A DNA stretch of 39,203 nt from an uncultured Planctomycetia bacterium (GTDB lineage Bacteria > Omnitrophota > Gorgyraeia > JABMQH01), in the NCBI GenBank assembly GCA_964421145.1, contig CAYQVM010000001.1:6108-45310 (forward strand), given 5' to 3'. The notes beneath the pieces were generated by a model. The model ran no database searches. It saw only the letters and a list, made by a program, of their open reading frames with translations, and was not told the origin of the DNA. Shown here piece by piece: positions 5,687 through 39,203 of this stretch. Numbering within the stretch: the stretch's first letter is position 1; each line of letters opens with the position of its first letter. The position numbers and the translations under genes were made by a program.

Positions 5687-7327
5687 ATGCTGACAACGGC
5701 ATCTCCAAAAATCTTTGTCGGAAGAAATGAAATACTGGAAACCCTGAATAAAAGGGTGGAGTCGTTAAAATCCGGTTACAGGCAGAACCTCGCCCTTACG
5801 GGCCAGAAACTATGCGGCAAGACCAGCATACTTCAGAATTTTCTATCTACGCTCAACAGCGACTCTATCATACCTGTATACATAGAAGTAATCGCCGAAC
5901 CGCTTGAAACCTTCTCAAAAAAATTTATCGGAACAATGCTCTTTAATTTTCTGAAGGGCTCCGAGGAATACATAAAAGAAGACCTGAATTTCCTTATCTT
6001 TAAGGCGGGCGGGACGATTCCAAAAACCGCCTCCGCCATAAAAGAGGTCCTGGCCCTTCTGGATAAGGGGGACTTGCAGGAAGCCTACTCAAACCTTTTC
6101 GATCTCACCTCTGTATTAAAACTTGAAACCGGCAAATCTTGCATAATAATACTCGATGAGTTTCACAACCTGTCATCCCTAAATCTAAAAAATCCGTTTG
6201 CGATATTCGGCAAAAGGATAATGGTGCAAAAAGACACCATGTATGTGGTAACCAGCTCGCAGGTTTCTACAATAAAAAAGATACTCAAGGAAAGGCTTGA
6301 CCTTTTATTTGGCAACTTTGAGATTATCGAGATAAAGGATTTTGATTACGGCGTGGCAAAGGCCTTTCTTGAAAAAAGGCTTGAAGGCATACGCGTACAG
6401 GAAGAGCTGAAGGATTTTCTGATTTCTTTCACGGATTCCAGGCCTTATTATCTAGACGCCATCGCGGCCGAATTAAACAGCCTTGCCGCCCAGCTCCAGT
6501 TTAAATGGCTTGCCACCGGCCACATCTCGCAGGCGCTTGAAAACCTATTCTTCGATTCCAAAGGTTCTATAAATCAGTACTTCCAAAATCTTATTGCGGC
6601 GTTCTCGCAGGGTTCCTACGCCAATGAGTACCTAAGCATCCTGACCGCTATATCAGAAGGGAAGAAGAGACTAAGCCAAATTAGAGGCGTATTCAGCGGC
6701 AAAAAAAATGAGCTTGGCCCAAGGATGGAAAGACTGATAGAAGAAAATTTTATCGCCAAGAACGGGATGATGCACTACTTTAACGACAAGGTCTTCGAAT
6801 TCTGGCTTAAACATGTATACAACAAAAAAAGATATTCGCTGCTGAGTAACTTTCAGGACAGGGCAAATATGTTCCACAGGGAGATAGAGGACTTGATTGC
6901 CCTCTTTTTATCGGAGAACAAAAAAGATATCGCCACCCGCTTAAAAGAGCTGATGGCCTCCTTTAATAACGAGGCCTTAAAGATAGGCGAAAAAAGCCTG
7001 AAGTTGCCGAAATTCGAGAATTTTAAGACGGAGGGGCAGATGTGCGAAAGCGGTGTCCTGTCCATCAGGGCCGAATACGGCGGGAAAAAATTCTGGGTTT
7101 TCAATTTCAGCCCCCAGTCGGTTGACGAACCGGGAATGTCAAGGGCCATAGAAAGAATAACTGCTATGAAACTCGCACCCCAAAGAAACGTTTTTATAGC
7201 CTTCGCGGGGATTGACGCAAACGCGATGCTGATAGCAAAAGAAAACAGGGTGTGGGTATTAGGGAAGGAGGATCTGAATTTATTAATGCCTCTTTTTAAT
7301 AAATTCAAGATACTAAAATATCCATGA
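5687..7327 (+). CDS. AAA+ ATPase of the archaeal-type (COG1672-like) family with a DUF234-like C-terminal module
   Basis: FVGRNEIL, Walker A GQKLCGKTS and Walker B IIILDEFH. 546 aa. The C-terminal ~90 aa form a separate module. Confidence 0.6.
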   Translation: MLTTASPKIFVGRNEILETLNKRVESLKSGYRQNLALTGQKLCGKTSILQNFLSTLNSDSIIPVYIEVIAEPLETFSKKFIGTMLFNFLKGSEEYIKEDLNFLIFKAGGTIPKTASAIKEVLALLDKGDLQEAYSNLFDLTSVLKLETGKSCIIILDEFHNLSSLNLKNPFAIFGKRIMVQKDTMYVVTSSQVSTIKKILKERLDLLFGNFEIIEIKDFDYGVAKAFLEKRLEGIRVQEELKDFLISFTDSRPYYLDAIAAELNSLAAQLQFKWLATGHISQALENLFFDSKGSINQYFQNLIAAFSQGSYANEYLSILTAISEGKKRLSQIRGVFSGKKNELGPRMERLIEENFIAKNGMMHYFNDKVFEFWLKHVYNKKRYSLLSNFQDRANMFHREIEDLIALFLSENKKDIATRLKELMASFNNEALKIGEKSLKLPKFENFKTEGQMCESGVLSIRAEYGGKKFWVFNFSPQSVDEPGMSRAIERITAMKLAPQRNVFIAFAGIDANAMLIAKENRVWVLGKEDLNLLMPLFNKFKILKYP

Positions 7328-22220: not shown

Positions 22221-22931
22221 ATGAAGATAAAAATCAGAGAATCAAAAGATGTGACAATTCTCGATGCAGAAGGCCGCATAGATATAGACGCTTCTGAATT
22301 TATAGAAACCGTAGGCTGGGTTTTAAAAAACAATAAAATCAAAATCTTATGTAATTTTGAAAACGTCGAATTAGTAGATTACAGCGGATTATCCATACTG
22401 GCCATTGCGTACAAAAATGTTACCAACCATAATGGGACGATGAAATTCTGCAATGTCGCTCTGCATATAAAGGAATTATTCAAGATTGTCCAGATGGACA
22501 GGGTCTTTATCTGCTATGATAACGAGCAGCAGGCATTGCTGAATTTTGACGAAAAAATATTAGCGCTTGAGAAAAAACGTTTACGGAGAAGATTTAAACG
22601 GCTGGAAACCAACATAGACGTCAGCTTCACTCCTAAAAATAAACCTGGTAAGGTACATAAAGGCAAAGTTCTTAACATAAGCGGGGCGGGCCTGTTTATA
22701 CTGACCTCAAACATACTGCCCATAAGAACGCAACTGCTGCTTGAAATCAGCGTCCCGAATGAATTAGTCCCTATTGAAATGGAGGGGATGGTACTCTGGA
22801 TCGCCGATAAAAATCTTCAATCATACTGTTATCCAGGAATGGGGGTGCAATTCATCAGCATTGACTCTCAAAAACAGAAGGATCTCTTGGATTTTATAGA
22901 TAAAAATATTACGCATAGAAGCGAGATGTAA
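22221..22931 (+). CDS. STAS (anti-sigma-factor-antagonist-like) + PilZ fusion protein
   Basis: The N-terminal ~110 aa are STAS-like (VTILDAEGRIDIDAS.., VDYSGLSILAIA, MDRVF). The C-terminus has RRFKR (RxxxR) and NISGAG (NxSxxG). Confidence 0.75.
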   Translation: MKIKIRESKDVTILDAEGRIDIDASEFIETVGWVLKNNKIKILCNFENVELVDYSGLSILAIAYKNVTNHNGTMKFCNVALHIKELFKIVQMDRVFICYDNEQQALLNFDEKILALEKKRLRRRFKRLETNIDVSFTPKNKPGKVHKGKVLNISGAGLFILTSNILPIRTQLLLEISVPNELVPIEMEGMVLWIADKNLQSYCYPGMGVQFISIDSQKQKDLLDFIDKNITHRSEM

Positions 22932-26515: not shown

Positions 26516-26537
26516 ATAAAAAGTTATTTATATGATA

Positions 26538-26565
26538 TTGACTTTACAAAAAAATATGCTATACT
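26538..26565 (+). promoter_or_regulatory. Putative sigma70-type promoter driving the riboswitch transcript
   Basis: TTGACT (26538-26543), 16 nt, TATACT (26560-26565). A G-run begins about 7 nt downstream. Confidence 0.5.
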
Positions 26566-26571
26566 AGTATT

Positions 26572-26767
26572 GGGGCCGATAAAGGCAAACCCTGAGAAAT
26601 CAGGGGACAGGCTAAATGCCTGACCGGAAGGTCGCAAAGCCTCAGGCCTAAGCTGTTATGCATGCCATGAAGGAAGGTGAGGCAAAAGAGCAAATAAAAA
26701 GCATAACAGTATGGTAGCTGGGCTGCCGAAACGCAGAGCAACTTAAGCAATGCGCTTTATTGGCTCC
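26572..26767 (+). promoter_or_regulatory. c-di-GMP-I (GEMM-I)-like riboswitch aptamer with extra peripheral hairpins
   Basis: Contains GGCAAACC-CUGA-GAAA-UCAG-GGGAC, GCAAAGCCUCAGGCCUAAG and UAUGGUAGCUGGGCUGCC. These match the GEMM-I consensus as I recall it, including a GAAA tetraloop and the 11-nt receptor. A 13-bp closing helix joins 26572-26584 to 26755-26767. Confidence 0.8.
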
Positions 26768-26777
26768 TTTTAGTAAG

Positions 26778-26808
26778 CGATATGCAAATGCGGCATATCG
26801 TTTTTTTT
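26778..26808 (+). terminator. Intrinsic terminator (expression platform of the riboswitch)
   Basis: CGATATGC / GCATATCG forms an 8-bp stem with a 7-nt loop, followed by T8. Confidence 0.75.
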
Positions 26809-26873
26809 ATTTGCATTTTTCTCTGCACTTAGTATATAATATAATAACTAGATATATAATATTTAGTCCTATA

Positions 26874-27626
26874 ATGAGCGAATCTTTAGATGAATTAAAA
26901 CGGGTAGAAGTAAATCAGTTCCAGGAAGAATTGGCAAAAACATATTTTTCAACAGGTTCTTCAAAAGAAGAGTATTCCTCACAGCCTAAACCTGCCGCCA
27001 AAGACAAAAACAATAGGAATAGAAACGGCCTTTTATTGGCTATTTTTCTAACCTTATTAATTATCACATCCATTGCCTTCCTGGCATTTAACCGCTTGAC
27101 TATTAATGTAAAGATAACTCCTGTGCCCAATTCCGGGATAGACAATAGCGCATATACCGGGATAGTCCCTTTTAATAAAAACGGAGAGCTTAATAATGAC
27201 CTTGTTAAACATGTGGTATTCTATGAAAATGCCGGAAATGAAAGCGCCTGGGGCAAGGATATTACCGTACTTTCAAATGAGGACATATCAAAAAAGGCTG
27301 TGTTGGGAATAGATTTTGTTAAACCAATAAGCCTAAAGGAGAAAATACTTTGTTTTCTTGCCAGGGGCAATAGCGGGGGCGAAGAATTCAGGATTGCGTT
27401 GCGCGATAATGAGAATAACATTTGTTATTCAAAAATCAGCGCCATAGAAAATGGGTGGCAAAAATTTATTGTAGACGGACTGACGGCCCAAGATTTTATA
27501 GATGCGGAAAAAATTAACCATATTGATTTTGAAGTAAATCCCGCAGAAAAAATTTTTTTAAACTCTTCAACTATTTACCTTAAGGATATGTATTTGGCTA
27601 AACAGGAAGGAGGCCCCGAGAAATGA
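26874..27626 (+). CDS. Single-pass membrane protein with an extracytoplasmic beta-rich (carbohydrate-binding-module-like?) domain
   Basis: Cytoplasmic N-terminus, TM helix LLLAIFLTLLIITSIAFLAF, and a ~170-aa C-terminal domain. ATG 26874 chosen because the track start (TTG 26760) lies inside the riboswitch closing helix. Confidence 0.55.
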   Translation: MSESLDELKRVEVNQFQEELAKTYFSTGSSKEEYSSQPKPAAKDKNNRNRNGLLLAIFLTLLIITSIAFLAFNRLTINVKITPVPNSGIDNSAYTGIVPFNKNGELNNDLVKHVVFYENAGNESAWGKDITVLSNEDISKKAVLGIDFVKPISLKEKILCFLARGNSGGEEFRIALRDNENNICYSKISAIENGWQKFIVDGLTAQDFIDAEKINHIDFEVNPAEKIFLNSSTIYLKDMYLAKQEGGPEK

Positions 27627-28699
27627 AAGTAGTAACAATTGCAAACCAAAAAGGTGGTTGTGGTAAAACTACCACGGCAATCAATCTGGCTAGTTTAAAT
27701 CATAGCGTGCTTCTTGTAGATCTTGACCCTCAGGGACACGCAAGCTACGGCCTAGGCGTGGATCCTATGAAAATCGAAAAATCCATATACAATTCTCTGA
27801 CCTCAACACAAGACAGAAGGCTCAATATAGAGAGCATCATAATAAATATAGCGGGCGGATTAGACCTAGCACCTTCTAACATACTCTTAAGCACCATAGA
27901 GCAGGAGCTCAGAGACGTTGAGGGGGCTGTCTCAAGGCTGTATGAGGCATTTAACTCAATGAAAAGATCTTATGATTTTATAATAGTTGACTGCCCCCCG
28001 AGCCTGGGGTTCCTGACATTCAATGCCTTGAGGGCTGCCCATCTAGTTCTTATACCGGTAGAAACCAGCAGATATTCCTTGGTTGGCATAAATAAGTTGA
28101 TGAATATGGTTGAGTTGATAGCCCTTAAGATACAACATGCGCCTAAGATAAAGGCTGTTGTAACAATATACGACAAAAGAACCAATTTTTCACAAAGAAT
28201 ATTAAATGAAACAAGATCTTATTTCAAAGATAACCTCCTAAGGACATTAATCAGGATTAATGTTGCTCTAAAAGAGGCGGCTAACTCCGGCATCCCAATA
28301 GACAGGTACAATAAACATTCCAATGGCGCCCAGGATTACCGCGAGCTGGCTGATGAGGTGCTAAAGGAAACAAAGAAAATTCATCTTGAAAATTTTTATA
28401 AAGAAACTCTGGCAATGATTAGCCACGCAAAAAGAATTTCCGGCTATACGCTTACGTTTGTTTCACCGGCAGCAAAAGAAGTCTACGTGGTCGGAGACTT
28501 CAATGATTGGGCCGTGGACCAAACCCATAAATTAACATTTAAAAACAATGGCAGGTGGGAAAAGAAACTGGATCTAAAACCCGGAAGATACAGATATAAA
28601 TTTGTGGTTGACGGCCAATGGGTGACAGACCCCCAGAATACCCAGACAGAGTCAAACCCGTTCGGCGGGGTTGATTCTGTTCTTACAATTAGTGCTTGA
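27623..28699 (+). CDS. ParA/MinD-family ATPase fused to a C-terminal CBM48 (AMPK-beta glycogen-binding-like) module
   Basis: Deviant Walker A NQKGGCGKTT, LLVDLDPQG and IIVDCPPSLG. The C-terminal ~85 aa, FVSPAAKEVYVVGDFNDW..GRWEKKLDLKPGRYRYKFVVDGQWVTDP, match the CBM48/AMPK1_CBM pattern. ATGA overlap with the upstream gene. Confidence 0.8.
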   Translation: MKVVTIANQKGGCGKTTTAINLASLNHSVLLVDLDPQGHASYGLGVDPMKIEKSIYNSLTSTQDRRLNIESIIINIAGGLDLAPSNILLSTIEQELRDVEGAVSRLYEAFNSMKRSYDFIIVDCPPSLGFLTFNALRAAHLVLIPVETSRYSLVGINKLMNMVELIALKIQHAPKIKAVVTIYDKRTNFSQRILNETRSYFKDNLLRTLIRINVALKEAANSGIPIDRYNKHSNGAQDYRELADEVLKETKKIHLENFYKETLAMISHAKRISGYTLTFVSPAAKEVYVVGDFNDWAVDQTHKLTFKNNGRWEKKLDLKPGRYRYKFVVDGQWVTDPQNTQTESNPFGGVDSVLTISA

Positions 28700-29382
28700 A
28701 AAAATCCTTATTAGACATATATAACAAGCTCTATAAAAGATTTGGCCCTCAAGATTGGTGGCCGGGAGATACCGAATTTGAAATAATAGTCGGGGCGATT
28801 TTAACTCAGAATACCGCCTGGGCAAATGTAGAAAAGGCTATATATAATTTAAAGAAACACAAATTACTCTCCCCGGTAAAACTTTCCCGGACAAAACCCC
28901 CAAAAATCGCTGCTCTTATAAGGCCCAGCGGATACTACAATATTAAGACTCGCAGGCTTTTGAACTTTATTAATTATTTGAACATTGAGTACGGGGGTGA
29001 CTTAAAAAGGATGTTCAGGCAAAAAACTGATGCCTTAAGAAAAAGGCTTCTTGGCATAAAAGGGATAGGCCCCGAAACGGCGGACAGTATATTGCTTTAT
29101 GCCGGCGATAAGCCCGTATTTGTGGTGGATGCCTATACCAAACGCATTTTTTCCAGATACGGCCTCTTATCAGAAGGGGCTTCCTACGATGAAATTCAGC
29201 GTCTTTTTTTACATAACCTGCCAAAAAGCGTAAAATTATACAATGAATATCATGCATTAATAGTGCGGGCAGGGAAGGATTTGTGCAGAAAAAAGCCTAA
29301 ATGCAGCTTGTGCTCCTTACAAAAAGGCTGTAAATACGCTAATAAAGGTATAGAGAAGGCCGAGATTGCAATTGCCAATTAA
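28696..29382 (+). CDS. Endonuclease III-related HhH-GPD protein with an Fe-S cluster loop
   Basis: ILTQNTAW, LLGIKGIGPETADSILLY, VVDAYTKRI and the C-terminal CRKKPKCSLCSLQKGC. TTG start overlaps the upstream stop. Confidence 0.75.
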   Translation: MKKSLLDIYNKLYKRFGPQDWWPGDTEFEIIVGAILTQNTAWANVEKAIYNLKKHKLLSPVKLSRTKPPKIAALIRPSGYYNIKTRRLLNFINYLNIEYGGDLKRMFRQKTDALRKRLLGIKGIGPETADSILLYAGDKPVFVVDAYTKRIFSRYGLLSEGASYDEIQRLFLHNLPKSVKLYNEYHALIVRAGKDLCRKKPKCSLCSLQKGCKYANKGIEKAEIAIAN

Positions 29383-34425: not shown

Positions 34426-34776
34426 TTACTTTACCTTATATACGGTATCCCCGATACGAACCCTGTCCTTGACCTTAAGGCCTATCTCTTGCCCTTTTTT
34501 GGCCTCTGTTACGGGAACATGGTCAACCTGAAGCGAATCTACCGTCTGCTTGAAGTCTGTAGTATGCCCTTTGACCTGAACTGTGTCTCCGCTCTTTAAA
34601 TCCTTAGATAATTTTATTACACCTGCGGAAACATGCGGAAAATAATGTGTTATCTCTCCTAGAACTTCTAAATCGGGCATAGTAGATGCCGGTGATAATT
34701 TTTTCGCGGATTTCTTAGCTGAGGGCTTTGCCTTTTTTACAGTTTTTTTACTTGTGTCTTTTTTCTTTGCCATCAT
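34426..34776 (-). CDS. Small protein with a Lys-rich N-terminus and an EF-Tu domain-2-like beta-barrel (translation elongation factor-like protein)
   Basis: HYFPHVSAGVIKL..LKSGDTVQVKG...EAKKGQEIGLKV. ATG 34776 lies 9 nt from the GGAGG SD, whereas the track GTG 34785 abuts the SD. Confidence 0.6.
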   Translation of the reverse strand: MMAKKKDTSKKTVKKAKPSAKKSAKKLSPASTMPDLEVLGEITHYFPHVSAGVIKLSKDLKSGDTVQVKGHTTDFKQTVDSLQVDHVPVTEAKKGQEIGLKVKDRVRIGDTVYKVK

Positions 34777-34915
34777 TAAAATCACCTCCCTTTCCCTGTT
34801 TTAGACAATTATATCACGCAAAATTAAACTTTCAAAACAATTTCTACAGACCTAACTATTAGAAATTGATACCGAGCGGCCGCTGGGTACTTAATTGGCC
34901 GCGAGTGTACCAAAA

Positions 34916-38865: not shown

Positions 38866-39203
38866 CTATGCCGTCCAATTATATGATTCGTAATCAGCGG
38901 TGGGACAAACTAACGCTATGGGCGCTGATTCTGGCTGGCGCTCCAAAATAAGCTGATCTTCTTCAATAGAAAAGGCCAATTTAAAACTTTGCCCTTGCTT
39001 AAGGCCTATGTCTTTAAACTCTACGGCCAACTCCAACACCTTTACATAGGCTATATCCGTTATCTCTTTTGCCGCCTTCCAATCACCCTGTCCGGCCCTT
39101 TTAAAAATAACAGCCCTTAGCTTCTTTTGAGTGCTTAATATAAGCGGCGCCTCTATCCTGATTTCGGGAGAAGGCACCTTGGAAATAATTAATTTTAATC
39201 TGT
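38866..39203 (-). CDS. C-terminal fragment of a larger protein (frame stays open to the window edge), possibly the C-terminal beta-domain of a GH57-type glycoside hydrolase
   Basis: The frame remains open upstream of the track's GTG at 39177 through 39203. The GH57/DUF1926 similarity is a weak impression only. Confidence 0.35.
   Translation of the reverse strand, partial: RLKLIISKVPSPEIRIEAPLILSTQKKLRAVIFKRAGQGDWKAAKEITDIAYVKVLELAVEFKDIGLKQGQSFKLAFSIEEDQLILERQPESAPIALVCPTADYESYNWTA

Follow-up and report, generated by a model that had tools for sequence, protein, structure and literature searches.

What does a ParA-type ATPase carry when a carbohydrate-binding module (CBM) is built into its own chain? 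This question is raised by a locus of an uncultured Omnitrophota bacterium, where an ATPase related to chromosomal partition proteins ends in a domain of the CBM48/AMPK-beta kind (the fusion is called ParA-CBM48 below). The window, that is the whole stretch of 39,203 nucleotides that was analysed, corresponds to positions 6108–45310 of contig C1 in a 1.03-Mb genome assembled in 150 contigs and 86% complete. ParA ATPases are a general bacterial means of placing large cargo, and we know of no ParA for glycogen. Our tentative answer is that ParA-CBM48 is an ATPase for tethering or positioning which is linked to alpha-glucan (glycogen), works with a membrane adaptor and has been wired to cyclic di-GMP (c-di-GMP) in the lineage of the window. 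The module consists of two genes, the fusion and a membrane-protein gene upstream of it, and is vertically inherited in Omnitrophota.

The fusion is the middle product of three plus-strand genes joined by 4-nt stop/start overlaps behind a riboswitch terminator (Table 1). A first-pass annotation, made from the sequence alone, had described this layout and had read the three products as a single-pass membrane protein, a ParA-type ATPase with a glycogen-binding C-terminus and an EndoIII-related protein; all of these identifications were borne out by the analyses below. Of the 358 residues of the fusion, the first 171 match Pfam AAA_31 (E = 1.1e-46, 159 bits versus a cut-off of 27), and CbiA also scores above its cut-off. 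The motifs on which the annotation had relied are intact and invariant in the family alignment: KGGCGKTT (residues 10–17), DLDPQ (33–37; quoted as DLDPQG by the annotation) and the Walker B motif IVDCPPS (121–127, given earlier as VDCPPS). The signature lysine of the deviant Walker A is present. Nearest to the ATPase in a search of PDB sequences were ParA 8ray and the Soj entries 1wcv and 6iub (34–39% identity, E between 1e-45 and 1e-33), and Foldseek matched its model to Soj with E = 1e-24 and TM-scores of 0.83–0.86 on the target. An invariant arginine, R211, aligns with the arginine of the Soj ‘PRNVRL’ motif, which we take to be the DNA-binding R189 of Bacillus subtilis Soj. ATP-dependent dimerisation, DNA binding and partner-stimulated ATPase activity are predicted for the fusion, with indirect support from this arginine and from the ParB-like N-terminal peptides of the partners described below.

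The C-terminal domain is supported by the Pfam and structure checks that the annotation had called for. AMPK1_CBM (PF16561) matches residues 283–357 (E = 1.8e-14, 54.1 bits versus a cut-off of 26.8), CBM_48 (PF02922) follows with E = 1.2e-7 and 32.3 bits versus a cut-off of 22.4, and the AlphaFold2 (AF2) model of the domain has a pLDDT of ∼90. In an alignment of the domain with the CBMs of AMPK beta (4y0g and 1z0m; E = 4e-10), W296, K326 and W333 are matched to W100, K126 and W133 of the glycogen-stacking face. All three residues are invariant in an alignment of 16 diverse family members (A1), and both tryptophans are at least 90% conserved over the 79 members used for conservation and identity statistics. 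Mean pairwise identity in the CBM48 is nearly as high as in the ATPase (44.7% versus 49.9%); the linker between them, where residues 234–272 are predicted by AF2 as a single long helix, has 17.6%. Calculated against L091, the locus of the closest relative, the ratio of non-synonymous to synonymous substitution rates (dN/dS) is 0.03 for the ATPase domain, 0.06 for the CBM48 and 0.04 for the fusion overall, values that are approximate since dS is ∼1.2, near saturation. With the same limit, positive selection was seen neither on the CBM48 nor on the ectodomain of the membrane partner (dN/dS 0.12). The CBM48 looks functional and slow-evolving, and it is predicted to bind sugar, most simply glycogen or another alpha-glucan.

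The family is widespread in Omnitrophota. In a survey of 301 genomes of this phylum from 211 genera, made with a profile that spans the ParA C-terminus and the CBM48, the fusion was found in 211 genomes (70%) and 142 genera, nearly always as a single copy. AMPK1_CBM of any kind is present in 259 of the 301 genomes, the surplus being due to a stand-alone domain that is common; many Omnitrophota encode such a protein of ∼100 aa, which in two places (G010:C60:8263-9020 and G051:C5:70118-70854) abuts a GT5-like glycosyltransferase of ∼400 aa. All of the 120 best matches in the protein collection carry both domains, and the named close homologues all belong to Candidatus Omnitrophota. A scan with one genome per species revealed a relative in at least 588 genomes. 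Of the 80 best, which were retained, almost all match over both domains and most are from Omnitrophota; Myxococcota, Thermodesulfobacteriota, Planctomycetota, Rokubacteria and other labels also occur.

The possibility that ParA-CBM48 is the chromosome's own partition ParA was considered and rejected: six contiguous relatives each encode both a Soj of ∼280 aa and a fusion of ∼370 aa, and three of the closest genomes have a plain soj directly before parB. The existence of a separate soj-parB pair in the relatives makes ParA-CBM48 an extra, dedicated paralogue. In the window genome, contig C54 (1–926) starts 38 nt before parB, and soj was probably lost at this contig break. No plain Soj was seen in G275, a genome of the same family, and its only ParB-like match is weak.

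The conserved core partner of ParA-CBM48 is the membrane protein, a role that the first-pass annotation had not assigned to it. The AF2 model, built from 46 homologues (pLDDT 85), has an N-terminal helix, a transmembrane helix at residues 50–72 and a beta-sandwich at residues 79–244, in agreement with the beta-rich outer domain proposed earlier. The window protein has no Pfam match; its sandwich resembles the jelly rolls of CBM30, CBM11, CBM4 and CBM16 in Foldseek (E ∼1e-5), and its homologues give weak Pfam matches to CBM30, CBM11 and MAM. A single-pass protein of this kind (190–300 aa) is encoded immediately upstream of the fusion in 44 of these 80 genome loci, all within two Omnitrophota-type clusters; the window and the closer metagenome contigs likewise have it before the fusion gene.

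The Omnitrophota partner has a remarkably well-conserved N-terminal peptide, M-D-K-K-D-I-Y-E-H-L-A-K-I-Y-L-D, which is followed by a poly-lysine run, the transmembrane helix and the beta-sandwich. In the clade of the window the peptide contains ..Q-E-E-L-A-K-T-Y-F... The lysine run points to a cytoplasmic N-terminus (N-in), which would make this peptide the sole part of the partner able to meet ParA. Other phyla have a different neighbour: encoded downstream is a protein, in some cases a degenerate ParA-like one, that starts with LG[KR]GLEDIS.LFLS (variant-2 partner peptide: LGKGLEDISYLFLS), and a MerR regulator is often found upstream of the fusion gene. This start resembles the N-terminal peptide of ParB; the ParB of the window genome begins with MERRALGKGISALI. 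The conservation of partner peptides argues that the fusion acts as a genuine partner-regulated ParA.

The gene neighbourhood provides a connection with the metabolism of alpha-glucans. A GH57 gene (Pfam, 7.8e-63), whose product has the HQP, GQIE, WPSEES and DGEN regions, ends ∼30 nt before the membrane-protein gene in 25 loci, which belong to the main Omnitrophota clade. It is usually preceded by a gene for an Alginate_exp (AlgE-type) outer-membrane channel (1.9e-32), found in 26 loci, so that the conserved order is AlgE-type channel, GH57, membrane partner and ParA-CBM48; apt, a tRNA gene and dinB also flank the main-clade locus. By a rough estimate, with some three GH57 genes per genome and a typical genome size that was assumed, not measured, to be ∼1.8 Mb, a GH57 gene would fall by chance within a 12-kb interval in ∼2% of cases. 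Two further loci have a branching-enzyme-type GH57 together with DUF4912 within 6 kb.

The window genome has a gene for GlgA. Its three GH57 genes are located on contigs C12 and C6, and a channel–GH57 pair is kept on C12, beside a contig end; we conclude that in the sub-clade of the window the genes for the membrane partner and ParA-CBM48 have moved away from the GH57/channel operon. The first-pass annotation had seen a hint of glycogen metabolism in a possible GH57-type fragment at the right edge of the window. This candidate was rejected, as the open-ended reading frame of 111 aa at that place (38866–39201, minus strand) has no Pfam match and the GH57 genes are on the two contigs just named.

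In the same sub-clade the operon has links to c-di-GMP. The aptamer in its leader is a genuine c-di-GMP-I element (Rfam RF01051, 49.7 bits versus a gathering score of 35, E = 8e-9 locally), and it recurs at the same site in L092 (49.6 bits; ParA 75% identical) and L101 (41.7 bits; 72%). It is absent in the close relatives L091 (ParA 90% identical), L011 (72%) and L102 (70%) and from 20 more distant loci, for which reason we rejected the riboswitch as a family-wide feature; L100 gave no match in upstream DNA of only 167 nt. In L091 the UvrD stop codon is directly followed by a hairpin; in the window this hairpin acts as terminator of the riboswitch, and a cassette of promoter and aptamer sits between the two (window 26516–26810 versus L091:7100–7200). 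It seems that the riboswitch co-opted a pre-existing terminator, or was lost from before it. The columns of a TTGCAT-18-TATAAT block 3′ of the terminator are invariant in the window, L091, L092 and L011, with riboswitch or without; the promoter scan did not flag this block. Its position and invariance suggest that it acts as a promoter, so that the operon probably has a promoter of its own, with the riboswitch adding or removing read-through and c-di-GMP tuning expression on top of it.

The description of the operon as riboswitch-controlled can be kept as far as the aptamer is concerned and has to be softened for the control itself, given that only some close relatives have the element and that a promoter-like block follows the terminator. 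As for the ON/OFF logic, folding showed no clear antiterminator. A gene for a STAS-PilZ protein is the second link, lying 0–2 genes upstream of the membrane-protein gene in six sub-clade loci (the window, L011, L012, L013, L091 and L092). Another riboswitch, of the ZMP/ZTP class (47 bits), was noticed at L101:3275–3361, before a pyruvate formate-lyase-like gene located three genes 3′ of the module.

Taken together, the 70% prevalence, the purifying selection on the CBM48 and the synteny with GH57 and the channel speak for a housekeeping function that is conserved and connected with the metabolism of alpha-glucans. Support for a link to glycogen comes from the conserved sugar-binding residues, from GH57 upstream in 25 loci and from the presence of GlgA and three GH57 genes in the window genome. 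In the mechanism that we envisage, a Soj-derived ParA carries its own alpha-glucan-binding CBM48 through a helical linker. ATP-bound dimers would sit on the nucleoid, like those of Soj, and the two CBM48 heads of each dimer would grip alpha-glucan particles in the cytoplasm, or else enzymes bound to glucan, for example the GH57 whose gene was ancestrally in the same operon. The short cytoplasmic N-peptide of the partner probably serves to dock ParA or to stimulate its ATPase, and it might capture the ATPase or turn it over at the membrane. As an outcome, glycogen stores would be tethered, distributed or passed to the envelope. In the lineage of the window the pair would have left the GH57/channel operon and now stand behind STAS-PilZ and, in some members, behind the c-di-GMP-I riboswitch. 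Direct granule binding by ParA-CBM48, as the first-pass annotation had put forward, would be part of this picture.

Several facts weigh against such a picture. Only in the main Omnitrophota clade does a GH57 gene adjoin the module; the window locus and other phyla have no such neighbour. GlgA is near-universal: it was found in 38 of 40 genomes, including 18 of the 20 that have no AMPK1_CBM, which makes its co-occurrence with the CBM48 uninformative and removes it as support for the glycogen link. The partner ectodomain diverges fast (14–20% identity between clades), as a variable-ligand sensor would. The main unexplained fact is the periplasmic CBM-like domain of the partner, for which positioning of granules in the cytoplasm does not account. 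To our knowledge, the known ParA ratchets do not use a ParA that is constitutively bound to cargo. Finally, the ParA of the window is 12 nt (4 aa, ‘ALAG’) shorter than that of every relative after the Walker A helix; this in-frame deletion, placed at 27692–27693 after residue 24, is unique to the metagenome-assembled genome of the window and may either be true variation of the strain or have arisen in assembly, by slippage between short GGC..GT repeats.

A stronger version of the same idea can be formulated, which seems to us rather unlikely: with ParA-CBM48, a storage polysaccharide would for the first time have a system of the partition type, in which glycogen granules are hitched to the nucleoid and released at the membrane adaptor under a c-di-GMP switch, and this system would be a core trait of the ultra-small Omnitrophota, not a defence system.

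Another reading places the module at the envelope. By analogy with BcsQ, a ParA on its membrane partner might scaffold or localise the export or uptake of an alpha-glucan or exopolysaccharide through the AlgE-type channel and the periplasmic CBM, under c-di-GMP. The conservation of the Alginate_exp channel gene in 26 loci, the periplasmic CBM-like fold of the partner and the riboswitch and PilZ links all agree with this, c-di-GMP being the usual signal for exopolysaccharide production, and the ParA domain does match BcsQ models (Pfam CBP_BcsQ, 4e-9; TIGR03371, 1.5e-18). However, the cluster has no glycosyltransferase or synthase and no inner-membrane translocon, the GH57 has no signal peptide as judged from its sequence, the CBM48 is cytoplasmic and the ATPase is much nearer to Soj than to BcsQ. 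We regard an envelope organiser as unlikely.

The only published idea about the family is of a different kind. A computational study posted on 22 October 2026 (bioRxiv 10.64898/2026.10.19.760177) described a ‘ParA-CBM’ system, clade ‘ConB5’, in which the core ParA with a C-terminal AMPK1_CBM is extended in one of two ways, by an upstream single-TM protein that bears another, outer CBM or by an inactive ParA with an inactive restriction endonuclease (REase). The first of these is the architecture of our locus. The first-pass annotation was not aware of any characterisation of the architecture; in silico it had already been described there, with an immune reading, and the work is purely computational. 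Searches of the literature for such a fusion brought up this preprint as the one relevant item and no experimental work. Its text contains no Omnitrophota, riboswitch or c-di-GMP, and GH57 was not searched for.

The proposal is that the CBMs are lectins that sense an infection-linked carbohydrate or the loss of a polysaccharide, upon which ParA would form multimers on the DNA that block a selfish element; it was argued from a ‘sporadic’ distribution and a ‘rapid divergence of the CBM’ (bioRxiv 10.64898/2026.10.19.760177). Besides describing the same core with both extensions, the proposal fits the quick divergence of the partner ectodomain and the scatter of the family outside Omnitrophota, over many phyla and with degenerate ParA or REase-like partners. 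As to the CBM48 carried by ParA, both premises are contradicted by what we find in Omnitrophota; that the outer domain of the partner diverges fast is common ground with the preprint. In place of a sporadic distribution and a fast CBM we see a single-copy gene in 70% of the genomes at a housekeeping locus beside GH57, apt, a tRNA gene and dinB, low dN/dS for the whole protein, its CBM48 and the partner ectodomain alike, and GH57/AlgE-channel synteny together with the c-di-GMP riboswitch and PilZ. Neither ParA-CBM48 nor the membrane partner is matched in PADLOC (2023 library), and no effector gene is present; patchy distribution, island context and a match to a known defence model are thus all lacking within Omnitrophota. 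An immune or conflict sensor is in our opinion quite unlikely. It should be noted that the immune and the housekeeping readings make opposite predictions, which can be tested cheaply.

The kinship of the ATPase with chromosomal Soj proteins, its closest relatives, and the conservation of its putative DNA-binding arginine would also suit an energy-store sensor. Here the AMPK beta-like CBM48 would read the glycogen load, and sequestration of the ATPase on granules or its release would modulate replication start, segregation or repair. The sub-clade gene is indeed translationally coupled to a DNA glycosylase gene and lies among repair genes, but this context exists in one sub-clade only, the partner that is conserved sits in the membrane and is not a DNA-bound factor, and the idea is purely speculative; it appears improbable to us. 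That the CBM48-like domain has given up sugar for a protein–protein role, for example in binding the partner N-peptide, is suggested by the strong conservation of partner peptides and by the AMPK CBM, which also forms a protein interface, but is very doubtful in view of the full set of sugar-contact residues kept under purifying selection and of the GH57 synteny.

With the putative cargo hook inside the ATPase chain, the question of cargo is open to a simple binding assay. The riboswitch and the PilZ neighbour may connect a second messenger with the storage of carbon in Omnitrophota, a phylum not known to have a cultured and genetically tractable member. The Omnitrophota prevalence, the constraint on the CBM48, the GH57/AlgE-channel synteny and the status of an extra ParA beside soj-parB are new here.

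The third protein of the operon matches HhH-GPD in Pfam (E = 6.8e-16), as expected from its annotation, and has a C-terminal cysteine cluster; its best NCBIfam match, below the cut-off, is a 3-methyladenine glycosylase-like model. The catalytic aspartate (VVDAY) is retained, and Pro-Glu replaces the Schiff-base lysine of EndoIII, which makes it look like a monofunctional glycosylase. A weak match to the PADLOC model ‘Type II nicking endonuclease’ (1.3e-6) was also recorded. HhH-GPD genes are found downstream of the fusion in L011, L013, L091, L092 and L097–L102 and are absent in the other 78 loci; the translational coupling is seen only in the sub-clade of the window. HhH-GPD was rejected as a functional core member on account of this restriction. 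In 34 loci (for example L041:7125–7562) the fusion gene is closely followed by a conserved gene for a small lysine-rich protein with an EF-Tu-domain-2-like barrel; the homologue in the window lies ∼5.7 kb away on the opposite strand (34426–34785, minus).

Table 1. Positions of the module and of associated elements in the 39,203-nt window
Feature	Position	Strand	Basis
STAS-PilZ (c-di-GMP receptor) gene	22221–22931	+	Pfam PilZ 5e-13, STAS 5e-10
Promoter-like site of the riboswitch leader	26538–26565	+	TTGACT-16-TATACT, extended TG; aligns with a block in L092
c-di-GMP-I (GEMM-I) aptamer with two enlarged loops	26574–26730	+	Rfam RF01051
Intrinsic terminator as expression platform, 11-pair stem and T run	26775–26810	+	Terminator scan (26775–26803)
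Conserved promoter-like block TTGCAT-18-TATAAT	26811–26840	+	Alignment of four loci
Membrane partner gene	26874–27626	+	AF2, Foldseek, homologues upstream of ParA-CBM48
ParA-CBM48 gene: ParA/Soj-type ATPase domain, residues 1–245	27623–28357	+	Pfam AAA_31, PDB sequence search, Foldseek
ParA-CBM48 gene: variable linker, residues 246–278	28358–28456	+	AF2, pairwise identity
ParA-CBM48 gene: CBM48/AMPK1_CBM domain, residues 279–358, and stop codon	28457–28699	+	Pfam, AMPK beta alignment
HhH-GPD DNA glycosylase gene	28696–29382	+	Pfam, NCBIfam

Each half of ParA-CBM48 has well-studied counterparts. With the chromosomal Soj/ParA proteins (Thermus thermophilus Soj, 1WCV/2BEK; Helicobacter pylori Soj, 6IUB; ParA, 8RAY) it shares the deviant Walker A, the signature lysine, the fold and the ‘PRNVRL’ arginine, and differs from them by the extra C-terminal helix and CBM48, by the lack of an adjoining parB and by having a membrane protein as partner. 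The AMPK beta CBM (1Z0M, 4Y0G) has the same aligned and conserved tryptophan, lysine and tryptophan of the glycogen-binding face; the window domain, in contrast, comes from a bacterium and has an ATPase as its fusion partner in place of a kinase scaffold, and its binding is predicted. As a tie between a ParA/MinD ATPase, polysaccharide handling and c-di-GMP, BcsQ offers a parallel, with weak model matches and a fold match (6YBB). Unlike BcsQ, ParA-CBM48 is Soj-like, stays with 67 bits below the TIGR03371 cut-off (158 bits) and has no bcs genes with it in the window. By analogy the module comes close to McdA/McdB and to the orphan ParA systems for cargo, in which an extra ParA serves non-DNA cargo and the partner contributes an N-terminal peptide; McdA (6NON) is also a fold match to ParA-CBM48 in Foldseek. 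McdA is devoid of the signature lysine, which is retained here, and where McdA relies on an adaptor for cargo, ParA-CBM48 would have the cargo-binding module covalently on the ATPase, with a partner that is anchored in the membrane.

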